From IMG/VR virus record IMGVR_UViG_3300042445_002023: 64,000 nt of DNA; one strand, written 5' to 3'. Positions 17,522 through 53,262 of the stretch are shown here, piece after piece. Under the pieces are notes generated by a model. That model saw nothing but the letters and a program-made list of their open reading frames with translations. It did not search any database and had not been told where the DNA came from. How positions within the stretch are numbered: the first letter of the stretch is position 1; each line of letters begins with the position of its first letter. The position numbers and the translations under genes are program-made. Origin of the DNA: a virus (lineage: Duplodnaviria > Heunggongvirae > Uroviricota > Caudoviricetes).

Positions 17522-17764
17522 ATGGAAGACGAATTAATAGGAATCATTAAATTATTCGGTGGAAACTTTATTCCACGAGGATATATGGAATGTAATGGAC
17601 AATTACTACCAATAAATCAATATCAAGCGGTGTATTCAATACTTGGTAATACATATGGTGGTAATTATCAATCAATGACATTTGCTCTACCTAAATTAAC
17701 CCCTCCCAATGAGAATATGAAATATATTATGTGTGTGGAAGGTGTATACCCATCAAGACAATAA
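17522..17764 (+). CDS. Phage tail collar domain protein
   Basis: IGIIKLFGGNFIPRGYMECNGQLLPINQYQAVYSILGNTYGG...FALPKL. Confidence 0.85.
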   Translation: MEDELIGIIKLFGGNFIPRGYMECNGQLLPINQYQAVYSILGNTYGGNYQSMTFALPKLTPPNENMKYIMCVEGVYPSRQ

Positions 17765-17768
17765 TACT

Positions 17769-18512
17769 ATGACAAAAGAAGAAATATTATACAATGTTGG
17801 TTTAACTGAAAAAGTTTATTCCGAACAAAAAGACATCGATTTTAAATCATTGGGTTTAAAATTAGTTAAGTGGATTGAGGATAAAAAATCCGATACTCAG
17901 GGATTCGTTGCAACAAAAGATAAATCAATTTATATTGTTTGGAGAGGCAGTTCATCTAAAAAGGATTTCCAAAATGATGCATCAATTGATAAAGTTCCTT
18001 TCATTGAAGAAGGTGAAAAAGTTCATATTGGATTCAAATCATCGTGGGAAGCAGTTAAAGATAAAACATATCAGGCGTTAGATGTTGCACTTAAAAACTT
18101 AGGTCAAGAACATTCAATAGATAATATTATTGTGTGTGGTCATAGTTTGGGTGCTGCAGTTTCAACCTTATCTGCATATGAGATTTATTCGATTTACAAA
18201 TCAAATAAAATTATATGCTGTACCATTGGTAGTCCAAGAGTTGGAAATAAAATATTTAAACAAAACTTTGATAAATCACCGATAGAATCCCTAAGAATAG
18301 TTCATAATTTAGATGTTGTTACTCGTGCACCAAATATTGGATATCATCATGTTAATACCGAATTAAGGATTGATGATGAGGGTAATGTTAAAAAATGGAT
18401 GGTTGATTGGAAAAGAGTAGGTGATTACCTTAAAGCAGTTTTCACTGGTCAGACAGTTAAAGACCATATGACAAGTAATTATATAAGTGCATTAAATAAA
18501 TGGAATCCATAA
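17769..18512 (+). CDS. Lipase class 3 (alpha/beta hydrolase)
   Basis: WRGSSS, VHIGF, GHSLGAA, GSPRVGN, VHNLDVV, DH. Confidence 0.9.
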   Translation: MTKEEILYNVGLTEKVYSEQKDIDFKSLGLKLVKWIEDKKSDTQGFVATKDKSIYIVWRGSSSKKDFQNDASIDKVPFIEEGEKVHIGFKSSWEAVKDKTYQALDVALKNLGQEHSIDNIIVCGHSLGAAVSTLSAYEIYSIYKSNKIICCTIGSPRVGNKIFKQNFDKSPIESLRIVHNLDVVTRAPNIGYHHVNTELRIDDEGNVKKWMVDWKRVGDYLKAVFTGQTVKDHMTSNYISALNKWNP

Positions 18513-19963: not shown

Positions 19964-20045
19964 TATGATAATAATTTGTTAATATTGAATTAACCTATTA
20001 AAAGAAGCGAGAGCATAATTATTGAGGAACTAACTTAAATAATTT

Positions 20046-22526
20046 ATGGCCCGTTTCTTTTTTATTTTGTTACTATTTCCATTTGTAGCGTTTTCTCAAA
20101 CCTCCCAATTAAGTGGAGAAACAAAATCCAAAACCGAAAAAATATATTTTTCACATATTACATTTGAAGATGTGAATGGTAATAAGTTTTCTACAATTTC
20201 TAATGAAAACGCTGAATACAAAATCAATCTAAAATTAGGTGTATATAAAATCAAAGCATCTTATGTTGGTTATACTACCTATACAACACAAATAAACTTA
20301 ATATCAGATACTACATTTGATATTATATTGTTGGATGATACAAAGCAATTATCAGAAGTCGTTGTTAGAGCAGCAAATCAAAAAGTAACTGATGTAGCAG
20401 TAGTTAGAACAATCCGAAATAGTAATGTAGTATCCGATGGAGTATCCATAGAATTCATTAAAAAAACACCTGATAGAAATGTTGGTGATGCTCTTAAAAG
20501 AGTAAGTGGTGTAACAATCCAAAACGATAAGTTTGTATTAGTAAGAGGATTGGCGGATAGATACAATTCAGCTATCTTAAACAAAACCCTACTACCATCA
20601 ACCGAACCTGATAGGAGAGCATTTTCATTTGATATAATTCCAACAGCATTAATTGATAATATTATAGTTGCTAAATCAGCATCGGCAAATCAGCCAGGTG
20701 ATTGGAGTGGTGGATTGGTTCAGATTACAACAAAAGAAGTTTCTGATAACTTTTTTAATATCTCATTGGGAAGTGGTTGGGGTTTAGTTTCAACTTTAAA
20801 GGATTTTAAGTTAGTTCAAGCTACTGAATTCCCTTCCACATTCCCATCTACATACGGATACCGTGTTAGTAGTAATGGTGATAAAAGATTATACACAAAG
20901 CAATTCAGTAATCCAATAGTAGATGGGTTTACTTCATCCCCAAACTTAAATGGTGGATTATCATTTGGTGTAAAGAAAAACAAATTCAACGCTCTATTCA
21001 GTTCAACCCTTAGAAACACATATGGAATAAATTACATAGATAGAATCGATTACCAATCCTCAACCGAATTAGCATACGATTATAGAGATACATTGTATAC
21101 AAAAAGATTTTCCGCAAATGGTTTATTGAATTTAACTTATTTAGGTGAGAACCGATATAGTTGGAAAACATTAGTGAACTATCAAACGGATGATTCTTAT
21201 ATGAATAGAAATGGTGAGAACTATGATAATGTTCAGAATGTTCATAGTAATTCATCTAACCACATAAATAATATTGTAGTTAATTCTCAATTCGATGGTA
21301 AACTTAAAACATGGGATTTTAATTTAGGGTATAATTTAATTTTAAGAGAACAACCTGATTATAGAGTTAATCCAATTACAAAATCATTAGGAGTAAACGA
21401 ACCATATACTACGGCGTGGAGAGATACATATCGTTTTTGGAGTGTGATGGATGAAAACTCTTTTAGTGGTAACATTAACAAATCATTTGGTGATATTAAG
21501 ATTGGTGGTGGCTACTTAAAAAAGATTAGAGGATTTAATGCAAGAATATTCCGTTATCTTTCAACTGATATGTTAGATGAGATAACAAACAATACAGACA
21601 AATACACTGCTGATTTTGATTTAGGTAGTGGGTATGTAATGTGGGATAAAGAATTTGGTTTATGGAAATTAAATACAGGTGTTAGAACCGAATATAATTT
21701 ATTTGGTGTATCTACTGCAGATTTTAGTGGAAGTAAAGTTAAAGTTAATAGAGAGTATTTAGATGTATTACCATCTCTAAATCTTTCATACAATTTAGAA
21801 AAAATAAAGTATAGATTTTCATTAAGTAAAACATTAGCAAGACCGGAGTTTAGAGAAGTTGCTAATTTTGCTTATTATGATTTTGTAAGAAATGCACAAT
21901 TATTGGGTAATCCTAAATTAGAAAAATCTGACATATATAATTTAGATTTGAAATGGGAATTATATCCAAAAGCAGGAGAGAATATTTCAGTATCCCTATT
22001 TGGTAAGAACTTCATAAAACCAATTGAACAAGTAGTAGCAGATGGGTCAGTTCCATCTAACTTATTATTAACTTACGCAAACCCTGATAACGCGTATCTT
22101 TATGGTGTTGAATTAGAATTTCGTAAAAAGGTAACTGAATGGTTTGATTTTTATACAAACGCTTCGGTAATGAATTCGGAAGTAAACGTGAAAGGAGTTA
22201 AAAGACAATTACAAGGACAATCAAATTATGTATTAAATGGTGGGGTTAATATCCACAAAAACAAAAACACACTTAACGTAACTTACAATAGAGTAGGCGA
22301 TAGAATATCAGCAATAGGATTTCAAGGTTATCCAGACATTTTTGAAAATAGTAGAGATGTATTGGATGTGACCCTTTTACATAAATTAAATAAAGGTGAA
22401 ATAAAATTGGCAATAGGTGATTTGTTTGGCCAACAATCAATCTATTATCAAAAATTACAAAACCGAAATTTGATAAAAACAAACAATGAACAAACAATTT
22501 CTTTAACATTAAATTTAACATTATGA
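20046..22526 (+). CDS. TonB-dependent receptor (Bacteroidota type)
   Basis: Sec signal, N-terminal CarboxypepD-like domain, LSEVVV TonB-box region, plug motif DALKRVSGVT...VRGLADRYN, barrel motifs LARPEF and GNPKL. Confidence 0.9.
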   Translation: MARFFFILLLFPFVAFSQTSQLSGETKSKTEKIYFSHITFEDVNGNKFSTISNENAEYKINLKLGVYKIKASYVGYTTYTTQINLISDTTFDIILLDDTKQLSEVVVRAANQKVTDVAVVRTIRNSNVVSDGVSIEFIKKTPDRNVGDALKRVSGVTIQNDKFVLVRGLADRYNSAILNKTLLPSTEPDRRAFSFDIIPTALIDNIIVAKSASANQPGDWSGGLVQITTKEVSDNFFNISLGSGWGLVSTLKDFKLVQATEFPSTFPSTYGYRVSSNGDKRLYTKQFSNPIVDGFTSSPNLNGGLSFGVKKNKFNALFSSTLRNTYGINYIDRIDYQSSTELAYDYRDTLYTKRFSANGLLNLTYLGENRYSWKTLVNYQTDDSYMNRNGENYDNVQNVHSNSSNHINNIVVNSQFDGKLKTWDFNLGYNLILREQPDYRVNPITKSLGVNEPYTTAWRDTYRFWSVMDENSFSGNINKSFGDIKIGGGYLKKIRGFNARIFRYLSTDMLDEITNNTDKYTADFDLGSGYVMWDKEFGLWKLNTGVRTEYNLFGVSTADFSGSKVKVNREYLDVLPSLNLSYNLEKIKYRFSLSKTLARPEFREVANFAYYDFVRNAQLLGNPKLEKSDIYNLDLKWELYPKAGENISVSLFGKNFIKPIEQVVADGSVPSNLLLTYANPDNAYLYGVELEFRKKVTEWFDFYTNASVMNSEVNVKGVKRQLQGQSNYVLNGGVNIHKNKNTLNVTYNRVGDRISAIGFQGYPDIFENSRDVLDVTLLHKLNKGEIKLAIGDLFGQQSIYYQKLQNRNLIKTNNEQTISLTLNLTL

Positions 22527-23725
22527 AAAAATTATTAGGTATTATTTTGGTATTAGGATTATTCAGTTGCCAAAAAGAATTAGGTGGTGATATAACTCCT
22601 ATCAATGTTCCAACTTCAACAACTTTGAGTGGTAACATTAACACAACAACAACTTTGACATCAGACAAAGTATGGACATTAAAAGGATATGTTTATGTAA
22701 CTGATGGTGCTAAACTTATTATCCAACCGGGTACAACAATTATTTCTGATATTGCAGAGAAAGGTGCATTAATTATTGAAAGAGGTGCACAACTTTTAGC
22801 AGAAGGAACTTCGGCAAAACCAATTGTATTTACATCAGGCAAAGCAGTAGGTGAAAGAACTCCTGGTGATTGGGGTGGTGTGGTATTATTAGGTAGGGCA
22901 ACTACTAATAGAACTTCCGAACCAACTATTGAAGGTGGTATTGGTAGACCATATGGTGGCACTAACGATATAGATAATAGTGGTATTCTAAAATATGTAA
23001 GAATTGAATACGCTGGTATCGCAGCAATGCCAAACTCTGAAATCAACGCCCTAACATTGGGTGGTGTTGGTAGTGGAACAATCATTGAGAATGTTCAAAC
23101 TATTTACGCTAACGATGATGCATTTGAATTCTTTGGTGGAACTGTAAATGCAAAGAACTTATACGCTTATGCAACTGCGGATGATGATTACGATTTTGAT
23201 TTTGGATATAGAGGTTCAGTATCTTATTCAGTATCAAAGAGAGACCCATTATTTGTAGATGCCGGTGATGCTGGAAATGGTGTAGAGTGTGATAATGATG
23301 GAACAGGTACATCTGCACAACCATTCACACATCCTAAATTAGATAATATGATTTTAGTTGGACCATTTGATGTAACCGCATTAGCAAACCACAATTTAGG
23401 TTTAAGATGGAGGAGAGCAACTCAATTCACAATTACTAACTCAAAGATTGTTGGATATCAAAAAGGTGGATTCTCAATGGAAAGTAATGAAACTGCACAG
23501 GCATATAAAGATGGTGTAAGTAAGTTCCAAAATAATGAGATTCAGGCGTATGAACCATTATTAAACTTCAAATCAACATCAACTATATTTACTGCAGCTG
23601 ATATGAAGGTAAAAGCTTTATCAGAGGGTAACAAACAAGTATCTTATACAAAAGCTGAAATGGAAATATTATCCAAACCAATATGGATTAGTGGTTGGAC
23701 TAGATTCCCAACAAAAGGTAATTAA
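22523..23725 (+). CDS. Lipoprotein with beta-helix-like repeats, partner of the TBDR
   Basis: Lipobox LFSC; LKGYVYV...GALIIERGAQLLAEGT...PIVFTS; WGGVVLLG; DDAFEFFGG; DDDYDFDFGY. Overlaps the TBDR stop (ATGA). Confidence 0.8.
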   Translation: MKKLLGIILVLGLFSCQKELGGDITPINVPTSTTLSGNINTTTTLTSDKVWTLKGYVYVTDGAKLIIQPGTTIISDIAEKGALIIERGAQLLAEGTSAKPIVFTSGKAVGERTPGDWGGVVLLGRATTNRTSEPTIEGGIGRPYGGTNDIDNSGILKYVRIEYAGIAAMPNSEINALTLGGVGSGTIIENVQTIYANDDAFEFFGGTVNAKNLYAYATADDDYDFDFGYRGSVSYSVSKRDPLFVDAGDAGNGVECDNDGTGTSAQPFTHPKLDNMILVGPFDVTALANHNLGLRWRRATQFTITNSKIVGYQKGGFSMESNETAQAYKDGVSKFQNNEIQAYEPLLNFKSTSTIFTAADMKVKALSEGNKQVSYTKAEMEILSKPIWISGWTRFPTKGN

Positions 23726-23729
23726 TATC

Positions 23730-23757
23730 AAAAGGGAGATTTATTCTCCCTTTTTTT
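23730..23757 (+). terminator. Intrinsic terminator
   Basis: AAAAGGGAGA-TTTAT-TCTCCCTTTT plus T-run; stem identical to the one at 16391. Confidence 0.8.
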
Positions 23758-23769
23758 ATATTTATACAT

Positions 23770-24003
23770 ATGATATATAAGGTTATAGATGTGCCGGTAA
23801 ACGACCCATGTGAAGAATGCATTTCATGTATGAGGCTTAAATTAATGGAAATTGGATTCGTGAGTGGACAGGACATTGAGATACAAAAAAAACAATGGGG
23901 GTTATATGTTATCAATCTGGTTTCAAAACAAGGACACGTTGAACAAACTATAGCATTAAGAGAAGAAGAATTTAATCGAATTTGTTTAAAAGAAAAAAAT
24001 TAA
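23770..24003 (+). CDS. FeoA-domain (SH3-like) protein
   Basis: RLKLMEIGFVSGQDIEI...IALREEEFNRI. Confidence 0.7.
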   Translation: MIYKVIDVPVNDPCEECISCMRLKLMEIGFVSGQDIEIQKKQWGLYVINLVSKQGHVEQTIALREEEFNRICLKEKN

Positions 24004-24066
24004 TATTAATAATTTAATAATACATAAGTCCCCCAATAAAAATGGGGATTTTTTATTTATACCTAT

Positions 24067-24786
24067 ATGCTAAAAGAAATACTTACTATCGTTATACCTT
24101 GTAAAAATGAAGGTATTAACATTTACGATTGTTTAGGTTTAATTTGTAAACAATCTGATATAGAAGGAACTAATGTAGTAATTGCAGATAGTTCCGATGA
24201 TGCGGATTCACTTTATTGGTTAAGCAGGGCAAGAATCGATTTTGGGTTCTCCATAGTAATTCATACCATCAATGGTGGATATCCTGCTAAAGCCCGTCTA
24301 AATGGTTCACAATTGGTAAAAACACCATACGTTCTATTCTTAGATGCGGATGTGATGTTAAGAAATAAAAATCTATTAAAAAATATATGGGAAACTTCAC
24401 TTGCATATTACGAAGTAGATTTAGTAACAACTCCATTTCAGACAGAAAAGGGATGGAATTGGGTTTTCCGTATTTTTGATAAATTTCAAAGATTGAGCAC
24501 ATTATTAGGTACACCATTTGCAGTAGGAGGATTTCAGATATTTAATACCAAAACCTATTGGGAGATTGGTGGATATAATCCCGAAGAATTATTTGCAGAA
24601 GATTACTCACTTTCATCTAAAATAAATCCAAAGAAATTTTGGATTCATAAAACAAAAGGAGTGTGGACATCTGCAAGGCGATTTAAAAATAAAGGAGTAT
24701 TATGGATGTTTAAGATAATGATACTAAGTTATATAAACCGAAATAATCCTAACTTCTTTAAACACCACCACAACTATTGGACATGA
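24067..24786 (+). CDS. Glycosyltransferase family 2
   Basis: TIVIPCKNE, VIADSS, ARLNG, LFLDAD, GGY...AEDY, TSARRF. Confidence 0.9.
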   Translation: MLKEILTIVIPCKNEGINIYDCLGLICKQSDIEGTNVVIADSSDDADSLYWLSRARIDFGFSIVIHTINGGYPAKARLNGSQLVKTPYVLFLDADVMLRNKNLLKNIWETSLAYYEVDLVTTPFQTEKGWNWVFRIFDKFQRLSTLLGTPFAVGGFQIFNTKTYWEIGGYNPEELFAEDYSLSSKINPKKFWIHKTKGVWTSARRFKNKGVLWMFKIMILSYINRNNPNFFKHHHNYWT

Positions 24787-25499
24787 AATATCAAGCAATC
24801 ATAGTATCAGATTTACACTTAGGTATAAAAGATTCTAAAACTGATGAATTCATAGAATTTATAGAATCACATCCTACGGAATTATTAATTCTTAATGGAG
24901 ATATAATTGATGGTTGGGCATTGAATAGAGGTTCTAAATGGAGAAAATCGCATACCAAAGTAATCAGTAAGTTATTAAAGATTTCTAATAAAACTCGTAT
25001 TATTTGGATTAGAGGAAACCACGATGAATTTATTCAAGAATTTATGAATAATCACATTGGGTCAATTGAAATAAGAGAGGATTATATCCTAAATGTGAAC
25101 GAAAAAAAATACTATTGTTTTCATGGAGATGTCATCGATGTATTCATTACAAAATATAAATGGTTATCAAAGATAGGTGCAGTGGGATATGATTTTGCAC
25201 TTTGGTTAAATAGAGTTTACAACACATATCGTAAGTGGAGAAAACTACCTTACATATCCATCTCACAAAAGATTAAAAATTCAGTTAAGGTTGCAACAAA
25301 TTATGTAAATGATTTTGAAACCACCGCATTATCAATGGCAACTAAAAAAGGATGTGATGGAGTTATATGTGGGCATATCCATCAACCAGAAGACAGAATG
25401 ATAAACGATAAGAGATATTTAAATAGTGGTGATTGGATTGAGAATATGAGTGCAATTTGTGTTGATGGAAATGGAATGTTATATTTATATAAAAGATAG
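24783..25499 (+). CDS. Calcineurin-like metallophosphoesterase of the PlcP/LpxH2 type (putative phospholipase C)
   Basis: SDLHLG, NGDIIDGW, GNHD, HGD, amphipathic lid region, CGHIH, NSGDWIE. Confidence 0.85.
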   Translation: MKYQAIIVSDLHLGIKDSKTDEFIEFIESHPTELLILNGDIIDGWALNRGSKWRKSHTKVISKLLKISNKTRIIWIRGNHDEFIQEFMNNHIGSIEIREDYILNVNEKKYYCFHGDVIDVFITKYKWLSKIGAVGYDFALWLNRVYNTYRKWRKLPYISISQKIKNSVKVATNYVNDFETTALSMATKKGCDGVICGHIHQPEDRMINDKRYLNSGDWIENMSAICVDGNGMLYLYKR

Positions 25500-46866: not shown

Positions 46867-46922
46867 AGAGATAACACCCCTAATAGTAAGACCCAAAATA
46901 ATTTAAAAATAAATGGGTAAAA

Positions 46923-46993
46923 ATTTGGAAATACCGATTTTTATTAGTAGTTTAGCTTTGTAATAATTGATAACACTAAAACATAAACATATG
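46923..46993 (+). promoter_or_regulatory. Repeated promoter-like element, copy 2, with leader
   Basis: ATTTGGAAAT-N14-GTAGTTTAGCTTTGTAATAATTGATAACACTAAAACATAAACATATG. Confidence 0.7.
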
Positions 46994-49089: not shown

Positions 49090-49118
49090 AAGTCATTGGT
49101 TTTCAATGGCTTGTTTTT
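49090..49118 (+). terminator. Hairpin plus T-run
   Basis: AAGTCATTG-GTTTT-CAATGGCTT followed by GTTTTT. Confidence 0.6.
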
Positions 49119-49153
49119 ATTCATAAAAAAACTTTAAAAATAAATGGCAATAT

Positions 49154-49224
49154 ATTTGGAAATCTCAATAAAAGGTCGTATATTAGCTTTGTAATAATTG
49201 ATAACATTAAAACTTAAAACAATG
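49154..49224 (+). promoter_or_regulatory. Repeated promoter-like element, copy 3, with leader
   Basis: ATTTGGAAAT-N14-GTATATTAGCTTTGTAATAATTGATAACATTAAAACTTAAAACAATG. Confidence 0.7.
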
Positions 49225-53191: not shown

Positions 53192-53234
53192 AGTGGAGCT
53201 TTAGGAGTGTAGGGTTCGAATCCCTACTCCACTC
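53192..53234 (+). ncRNA. tRNA-like minihelix (acceptor stem plus T-arm only)
   Basis: AGTGGAG/CTCCACT 7-bp stem; TAGGG-TTCGAAT-CCCTA T-arm; only 11 nt where the D and anticodon arms would be. Confidence 0.5.
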
Positions 53235-53262
53235 AAATTTTTAAAATTTATACTAAAAAGTT

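Follow-up and report, generated by a model that had tools for sequence, protein, structure and literature searches.

A transporter-lipoprotein pair behind a Pho-box-like operator, next to a separate glycosyltransferase-phosphoesterase unit, in a T4-like freshwater phage of Bacteroidota

Five genes in three units on a phage genome

We analysed five consecutive genes at positions 20046-25499 of a 64,000-nucleotide stretch of virus DNA, IMG/VR record IMGVR_UViG_3300042445_002023 (this whole stretch is called the window below). A preliminary description, made from the sequence alone, had read these genes as a candidate phosphate-starvation cassette, and all five open reading frames (ORFs) were confirmed on the + strand at the coordinates given here. 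The first gene (20046..22526, +) encodes a TonB-dependent outer-membrane transporter of 826 amino acids (aa), composed of a signal peptide, a CarboxypepD_reg-like domain, an LSEVVVR stretch, a plug and a beta-barrel. It is followed by the gene for a surface lipoprotein of 400 aa (22523..23725, +), a right-handed parallel beta-helix that precomputed annotation places in PF28492 Beta_helix_4, a new Pfam family. A gene for a 77-aa FeoA-domain protein (23770..24003, +) comes next, standing alone. The last two genes overlap by 10 bases and encode a glycosyltransferase of family 2 (GT2; 24067..24786, +; 239 aa) and a calcineurin-type metallophosphoesterase with the LpxH fold (24777..25499, +; 240 aa). 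A Pho-box-like operator (19966..19997, +) lies in the 82-base gap 5' of the transporter gene.

Two terminator-like hairpins interrupt this row of genes. The first (23730..23754, +), a 10-pair stem with a T run, ends the transporter-lipoprotein unit, and the second (24031..24047, +) lies between the FeoA gene and the GT2 gene. The five genes are predicted to form three transcription units, split by these strong hairpin terminators. We also observed a ATTTATAC-like string straight after each terminator (window positions 23755-23769 and 24048-24066), with the FeoA and GT2 genes starting 4-6 bases later; similar strings stand 5' of ORFs 31947, 32537 and 40667, and they may be a phage promoter. The promoter reading of the post-terminator string TTATTTATA was set aside as an impression only, its exact nonamer not being enriched in the window.

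The units occur independently of each other in related phages. In IMG/VR, 147 contigs, the longest of 326 kb, carry the transporter gene, and we analysed the best 80 of these (63-99% identical), 74 of which have DNA 3' of the transporter. The lipoprotein gene directly followed the transporter gene in all 74. The GT2 gene was next to the pair in only seven, with the phosphoesterase gene there too wherever the locus extended far enough, and the FeoA gene was present in a single one (L001), also the only one among all 80. The phosphoesterase gene was found in 387 viral loci; in the best 80 of these, the GT2 gene was immediately 5' in 67 of 75 loci, and the transporter-lipoprotein pair was within 6 kb in three of the 80. 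One of four complete genomes carried both units, 82 kb apart, one carried the pair only, and two carried the phosphoesterase only. In phages L049 and L062, the GT2 gene directly follows the lipoprotein gene with zero gap, so that co-transcription behind the operator may occur there, which is not the rule. Capture of one cassette as a block, which the preliminary description had raised, was thus not borne out, given the terminators and the independent occurrence of the units.

The same holds for FeoA as part of such a cassette. The 77-aa protein matched the FeoA Pfam family weakly (19.7 bits compared to a cut-off of 23, E 9e-4), and viral FeoA-domain proteins make up all of the 100 Atlas clusters nearest to it. 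Its gene was found at other positions in two of the 80 phosphoesterase loci. Bounded by the two terminators and without a phosphate link, it is an unrelated mobile single gene.

The host-like look of the genes would fit host DNA fused to phage DNA by misassembly, or the edge of a prophage, as would the phage-type pair on L085, a contig of a metagenome-assembled genome (MAG) binned as Spirosomataceae. However, identical junctions were present on both flanks of the genes in the independent assemblies L001, L018, L044 and L055. The first of these, an independent IMG/VR contig of 237,724 bases, shares an identical eleven-gene order with the window at 90-100% identity. The G+C content of the window is about 30% throughout, including across the five-gene region, the transporter gene recurs on the 147 viral contigs, and a T4-type Gp23 capsid gene is present on two related contigs that CheckV rates as complete (209 and 326 kb). 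Moreover, the phage copies form a clade of their own with their own common deletions (see below), and the stretch is partly present in 22 lake-water DNA runs, of which 12 contain at least half of its sampled words. The five genes are real and intact and the assembly is non-chimeric. A chimera with host DNA, which had been considered possible, is therefore ruled out, and misassembly or a prophage edge, with a probability that we put close to nil, is refuted for practical purposes. L085 and a second MAG contig, L110 (binned as Sediminibacterium), fall inside the phage lipoprotein clade; L085, where the lipoprotein has no bacterial neighbours, is probably phage DNA that was binned wrongly.

The window is coded almost entirely on one strand and encodes a GH19 endolysin, and the majority of its ORFs gave no family match. 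At the DNA level, the stretch matched no GenBank phage. The source is a T4-like freshwater phage of Bacteroidota, and the host within this phylum probably belongs to the Chitinophagales.

The transporter-lipoprotein pair and its operator

The transporter matched the Pfam families CarbopepD_reg_2, Plug (31.7 bits) and OMP_b-brl_3 (92.3 bits), the latter two above their cut-offs, and matched NCBIfam TIGR01782 at 184.6 bits, under its cut-off. Its AlphaFold2 model (predicted local distance difference test score, pLDDT, of 83) comprises an N-terminal sandwich domain, a disordered TonB-box region, a plug at about residues 115-230 and barrel strands at residues 236-825. The LSEVVVR-like stretch, TonB-box-like by eye only, lies just N-terminal to the plug and is conserved in phage and bacterial copies. 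The lipoprotein carries the lipobox LFSC, and its start overlaps the stop codon of the transporter (ATGA), suggesting putative coupling of its translation to that of the transporter. Its predicted beta-helix (pLDDT 87.3) resembles beta-helix carbohydrate-active proteins, lyases and epimerases included, with a VIA-align Z of about 23, which is a general likeness without a close solved relative. Indeed, Foldseek gave no match to the PDB at E <=0.001, and a profile search against PDB sequences found nothing. PHROGs gave no match for the transporter, the lipoprotein or the FeoA protein.

Prediction of the transporter-lipoprotein complex gave an interface score (ipSAE) of 0.68, compared to 0.01 for the best control. 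This mark was attained by 58 of 80 solved complexes and by 2 of 110 mismatched pairs. At least 86% of the contacts agreed between runs, the partner pLDDT was at least 85, and the predicted contacts involve every other loop of the barrel, all on a single face. The prediction thus supports binding, with the lipoprotein modelled as a putative lid on the outer face of the transporter. Ratios of nonsynonymous to synonymous substitution rates (dN/dS) of 0.11-0.16 for the transporter and 0.10-0.15 for the lipoprotein indicate that the pair is under purifying selection. To our knowledge, no transporter-lid complex of such a kind has been solved.

Two chromosomal systems appear to be built alike. The BT4055/BT4056 transporter-lid pair of Bacteroides thetaiotaomicron is conserved in 621 genera (bioRxiv 10.1101/2023.03.17.533168), and Caulobacter ElpS, whose neighbour is the receptor CCNA_00170, is induced by phosphate starvation (PMC2996285). 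Both combine a non-SusC transporter with an outward-facing beta-helix lipoprotein that is predicted to cover its outer side, as in our complex model; kinship with the phage pair is proposed from architecture, fold and context rather than from alignment.

We examined the bacterial relatives in one-genome-per-species data, using the 80 best lipoprotein loci, nearly all from Bacteroidota, and clustering about 1000 flanking ORFs, with annotation of the recurrent clusters. With 6674 representatives at 50% identity, the lipoprotein family is a large one, and the closest bacterial members come from Chitinophagales, with 50-59% identity. A homologous transporter adjoins the lipoprotein in 68 of the 80 loci, nearly always directly 5'; the phage transporter is 28-39% identical to the bacterial transporters so placed. 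At least one of phoB, phoR, PHO4, PhoU_div, a PlcP-like phosphoesterase and OlsF lies within 10 kb in 34 of the 80 loci, and phosphate-linked neighbours accompany nearly all of the closest, Chitinophagales loci. The link between such a pair and pho genes had been put forward in the preliminary description, and these neighbours substantiate it.

The most frequent of these neighbours was the gene for PhoB, found near the pair in 18 loci (Bacteroidota equivalog NF053854, 322.9 bits compared to a cut-off of 270), followed by a PhoR-like kinase (16 loci), PhoU_div (nine), the PHO4 phosphate transporter (eight), an LpxH-fold phosphoesterase (eight) and an OlsF-like aminolipid synthase (seven); a PAP2 phosphatase also recurs. 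The typical order in the closest relatives is PHO4, PhoU_div, in some loci the phosphoesterase, transporter, lipoprotein, a small unknown gene, PAP2, phoR and phoB. Unknown conserved genes of about 164 and about 402 aa recur together with PAP2 beside the bacterial pair (L090, L099, L100 and others). None of the three has a homologue in the window.

A comparable pair has been studied in Flavobacterium johnsoniae. Its phoBR operon includes the transporter Fjoh_0545 and the pectin-lyase-fold lipoprotein Fjoh_0546 ('FII'), together 'PUSIV', which are strongly induced by phosphate depletion and rank among the most strongly induced genes under this condition (Lidbury et al. 2021, PMC8115612). Fjoh_0545 has the Pfam matches PF07715, PF13715 and PF14905, like the phage transporter, with the pectin-lyase-fold lipoprotein directly 3', and the pair adjoins phoB/phoR, as do the bacterial relatives examined here. 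The likeness is one of architecture, not of direct alignment. In contrast, it is a lytic-type phage that encodes the present pair, and its transporter is shorter by about 130 residues.

The phage operator consists of three hexamers with an 11-base period, namely ATAATA (19968-19973), TTAATA (19979-19984) and TTAACC (19990-19995). Such a repeat period is typical of PhoB/OmpR-type regulators. TTAACA-type hexamers were strongly enriched 5' of the bacterial transporters, and their direct repeats at exactly 5-base spacing numbered 26 in the bacterial upstream regions, compared to one or two for other spacings. We derived a weight matrix from 21 bacterial TTAACA-N5-TTAACA sites and with it detected the motif 5' of 45 of 55 transporters, 7 of 11 phoB genes and 4 of 6 phosphoesterases, and 5' of none of 37 housekeeping neighbours. 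The upstream regions of the phage transporters scored a median of 9.5 bits compared to -0.7 bits for 1141 other phage upstream regions, and 80% of them lay above the null 95th percentile. In most related phages, the site is 56-86 bases 5' of the start codon. The two best + strand matches of the matrix in the 64-kb window (12.5 and 14.2 bits) overlap each other inside the 82-base gap that precedes the transporter gene.

The company that this motif keeps suggests that the phage transporter has retained a host-type PhoB site. With such an operator, phosphate starvation of the infected cell would most likely lead the host machinery to transcribe the pair, which would add import capacity for a phosphorus-containing substrate. 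We consider it likely, judging from motif, homology and bacterial context, that the pair is a Pho-derived, PhoB-responsive importer. The part of the preliminary phosphate idea that concerned the transporter pair is thus largely supported.

TonB-dependent transporters classically import iron complexes and glycans, and a pair importing a non-phosphorus nutrient such as these, next to a GT2 and a phosphoesterase that act on nucleotide sugars for lipid-unrelated glycosylation, has to be weighed. The adjacent FeoA gene would hint at iron, and the beta-helix resembles lyases and epimerases. Moreover, the 'SusC' TonB-dependent receptor of the megaphages Mar_Mega_1/LR745206 was read as serving carbohydrate uptake (Michniewski et al. 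2021, PMC9723777). However, the bacterial neighbours of the pair are phosphate genes rather than iron or glycan genes, the FeoA gene is separated by a terminator and absent from all but one other transporter locus, and the LR745206 transporter itself adjoins a homologue of the present lipoprotein. We regard import of another nutrient as very unlikely.

LR745206.1 (635 kb; L188, 72164-89045) resembles the present phage in being a large Bacteroidota phage with a transporter and an adjacent lipoprotein. It is an unrelated phage, however, and its lipoprotein homologue (40% identity) precedes the transporter (27% identity), in the reverse of the present gene order. This indicates an independent capture, so that capture happened at least twice.

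In the present group of phages, the lipoproteins fall into a single clade (SH-aLRT 97), with Chitinophagales sequences next to it. Compared to their bacterial counterparts, the phage transporters are shorter by about 130 residues and have six deletions common to all phage copies and placed between strands, one of which removes 32 residues from a loop that touches the lid in the model. The N-terminal domain is missing from many phage copies. The single clade and the common deletions, together with the low dN/dS, argue that the pair was captured once, then streamlined and kept for long under selection, and the tree suggests a Chitinophagales-like Bacteroidota donor.

Trimmed loops and a lost N-terminal domain would also fit remodelling of the cell surface for superinfection exclusion or receptor replacement, with any phosphorus gain incidental. 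In that case, the phage transporter and lid would replace or mask the host version, possibly a phage receptor. Against this, the kept Pho-box-like operator, the intact plug and the TonB-box-like motif favour regulated transport over a decoy, and use of such a receptor is not known from any phage of this group. Both surface remodelling as the main rival to phosphorus acquisition and its receptor-masking variant therefore seem unlikely to us.

The glycosyltransferase and the PlcP-like phosphoesterase

The phosphoesterase matched Metallophos at 56.1 bits with all five metallophosphoesterase motifs intact, and it scored under the cut-offs of the LpxH models (60.6 bits compared to 134 for NF003743, and 42.8 bits compared to 190 for TIGR01854). 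LpxH, the UDP-2,3-diacylglucosamine diphosphatase, has the same fold and a helical insert of similar length, and is the source of the naming in databases. Five Bacteroidota genomes each had two LpxH-like genes, scoring 98-108 bits and 50-64 bits on the LpxH model, and the second, lower-scoring paralogue is the one that occurs in the bacterial Pho loci. The phage enzyme is 36-42% identical to this second paralogue and only 24-27% identical to the LpxH-like one. It shares the diagnostic residues of the second paralogue and groups with it in a clade with support of 100/100, apart from the LpxH-like paralogue. Since LpxH was used as the outgroup of PlcP (PMC9239053), we read the second, non-LpxH paralogue as PlcP-like. 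The difference between GNRD and GNHD was dropped as a mark for telling LpxH apart, since the Bacteroidota LpxH-like paralogue also has GNHD.

In bacteria, the operator was found 5' of the second paralogue in 5-6 of 9 cases, and a Glyco_trans_1_3/GT28-like glycosyltransferase gene was located 3' of it in three loci. The phage phosphoesterase, with a dN/dS of 0.04-0.15, has a homologue of 38% identity in a cultured SAR11 phage, Pelagibacter phage Mosig (L186, MT647606.1 93031-94866), where it is annotated as an LpxH-type hydrolase and divergently adjoins a putative phosphate ABC transporter gene. A further homologue, 32% identical, is present in Synechococcus phage S-SRM01.

The GT2 protein matched Glycos_transf_2 at 50.4 bits, Glyco_transf_21 at 21.5 bits (cut-off 21.7) and TIGR04283 at 54.6 bits (cut-off 182), and did not match the GT4 family. 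Its nearest Atlas clusters are viral, with GT21-bearing and CrtQ-like clusters among the neighbours. The borderline GT21 match and the CrtQ-like neighbours are leads only, which may point toward a lipid acceptor. We found no close bacterial relative in five, then 401, Bacteroidota genomes (identity at most 31%, none beside a phosphoesterase).

The preliminary description had paired a PlcP-like enzyme with a glycosyltransferase. The enzyme held up as a Pho-linked, non-LpxH paralogue whose bacterial copies are followed by a glycosyltransferase gene, and the GT2 held up less well, having neither a close nor a phosphate-linked bacterial relative. In the proposed reaction sequence, the PlcP-like phosphoesterase would most likely cut phosphate-bearing head groups from host phospholipids, and the GT2 would glycosylate the resulting diacylglycerol, freeing membrane phosphorus. 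We propose such lipid renovation tentatively, with slightly less than even confidence.

Under surface remodelling, the two enzymes would instead alter lipid A, lipopolysaccharide or a surface glycan. The LpxH fold of the phosphoesterase and a weak match of the GT2 to a GtrB-like PHROG (E 2.5e-4) speak for this role. However, the phosphoesterase clusters with the Pho-linked rather than the LpxH-like paralogue, and we give a surface role of the two enzymes a low probability.

Comparable bacterial systems are the PlcP-Agt lipid renovation pathways (Sebastian et al. 2016, PMC4796936; for Methylosinus, PMC9239053). They likewise combine an LpxH-related, non-LpxH metallophosphoesterase with a glycosyltransferase, and the bacterial relatives of the phage enzyme are Pho-linked. 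The phage unit differs in its partner, a small GT2 rather than a GT4 (Agt) or GT28-like enzyme, and in being without a Pho box.

Another lipid-directed enzyme is encoded in this variable region, a class-3 lipase (PF01764, 97.6 bits; window positions 17733-18512), 1.5 kb 5' of the transporter. It is restricted to the closest relatives (L001, L018, L044 and L055), with versions of about 59% identity in L059, L060 and L062. Elsewhere in the window, upstream regions of about 60 bases are near-identical at about 46880-46966 and 49110-49197, ahead of the TTG-start ORFs 46967 and 49198. They show the Bacteroidota-type promoter pattern TTTG ... TAgcTTTG and look like a repeated host-type promoter cassette, which fits a Bacteroidota host. 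A stretch resembling a tRNA T-arm (GGTTCGAATCC with its flanks) at about 53200-53240 lies inside a 359-base gap 5' of ORF 53263. ARAGORN found no tRNA there and Rfam nothing, and the stretch may be a tRNA remnant.

Phosphorus acquisition as the proposed function

We propose that three independent units have come together where this T4-like freshwater Bacteroidota phage has a variable 'envelope' region. The transporter-lipoprotein unit would be the phage copy of an outer-membrane uptake pair of the host Pho regulon with its operator retained, the GT2-phosphoesterase unit would release phosphorus from membranes, and the phosphorus found and freed would probably serve phage DNA. This reading as a whole, with two phosphorus-stress modules that are independent of each other and a mobile gene unrelated to them, is one that we hold with a little better than even confidence. 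The preliminary phosphate idea is thus kept for the pair and is plausible for the GT2-phosphoesterase unit, and was given up for capture as a block and for FeoA. A further proposal goes beyond this, namely that a lytic phage joins an importer under the host phosphate-starvation regulator to stripping of phosphorus from membrane lipids, as two-pronged and condition-sensing phosphorus mining, with trimmed loops that might blind the transporter to competing phages. We put it forward as doubtful.

Several points weigh against phosphorus acquisition. The roughly 20 kb around the five genes are rich in other exported proteins; secreted proteins, lipoproteins and barrel proteins stand in a long row at 8-28 kb of the window, which fits general surface remodelling. 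The operator motif was not found 5' of pstS in four of five Bacteroidota genomes, and the remaining one had a moderate match. The assignment of the motif to PhoB is therefore made because it accompanies phoB, the transporter and the phosphoesterase. Likewise, the operator was not found in six of seven distinct phage GT2-phosphoesterase sequences examined, nor before the unit in the window. The GT2 family differs from the glycosyltransferases that are paired with PlcP in bacteria, and the protein has no bacterial relative with a phosphate link. The PlcP-like label itself derives from the paralogue clade and the description in the literature rather than from direct comparison to a characterised PlcP. 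Finally, as to the imported substrate, the beta-helix fold gives no more than a general hint, toward proteins that bind or cut glycans.

Marine cyanophage pstS, phoA and phoH are textbook examples of phage genes that relieve phosphorus stress. Zeng and Chisholm reportedly showed in 2012 that the auxiliary genes pstS and phoA of cyanophages are controlled by the host PhoBR. These are likewise host phosphate-starvation genes in T4-like phages with host Pho boxes 5'. The cargo of the present phage is different: one unit supplies a lidded outer-membrane transporter and another a pair of lipid-directed enzymes, and the setting is a Bacteroidota host in lakes. A literature search found no paper on a phage PlcP or on a Pho-linked phage transporter.

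If the proposed reading is right, the phosphorus-stress logic known from cyanophages would now extend to abundant lake phages of Bacteroidota, with very different cargo. If the operator works, the locus would be a clear example of a phage gene that has joined a host regulon, and it would offer a handle on the substrate of a transporter family that is found in hundreds of genera.

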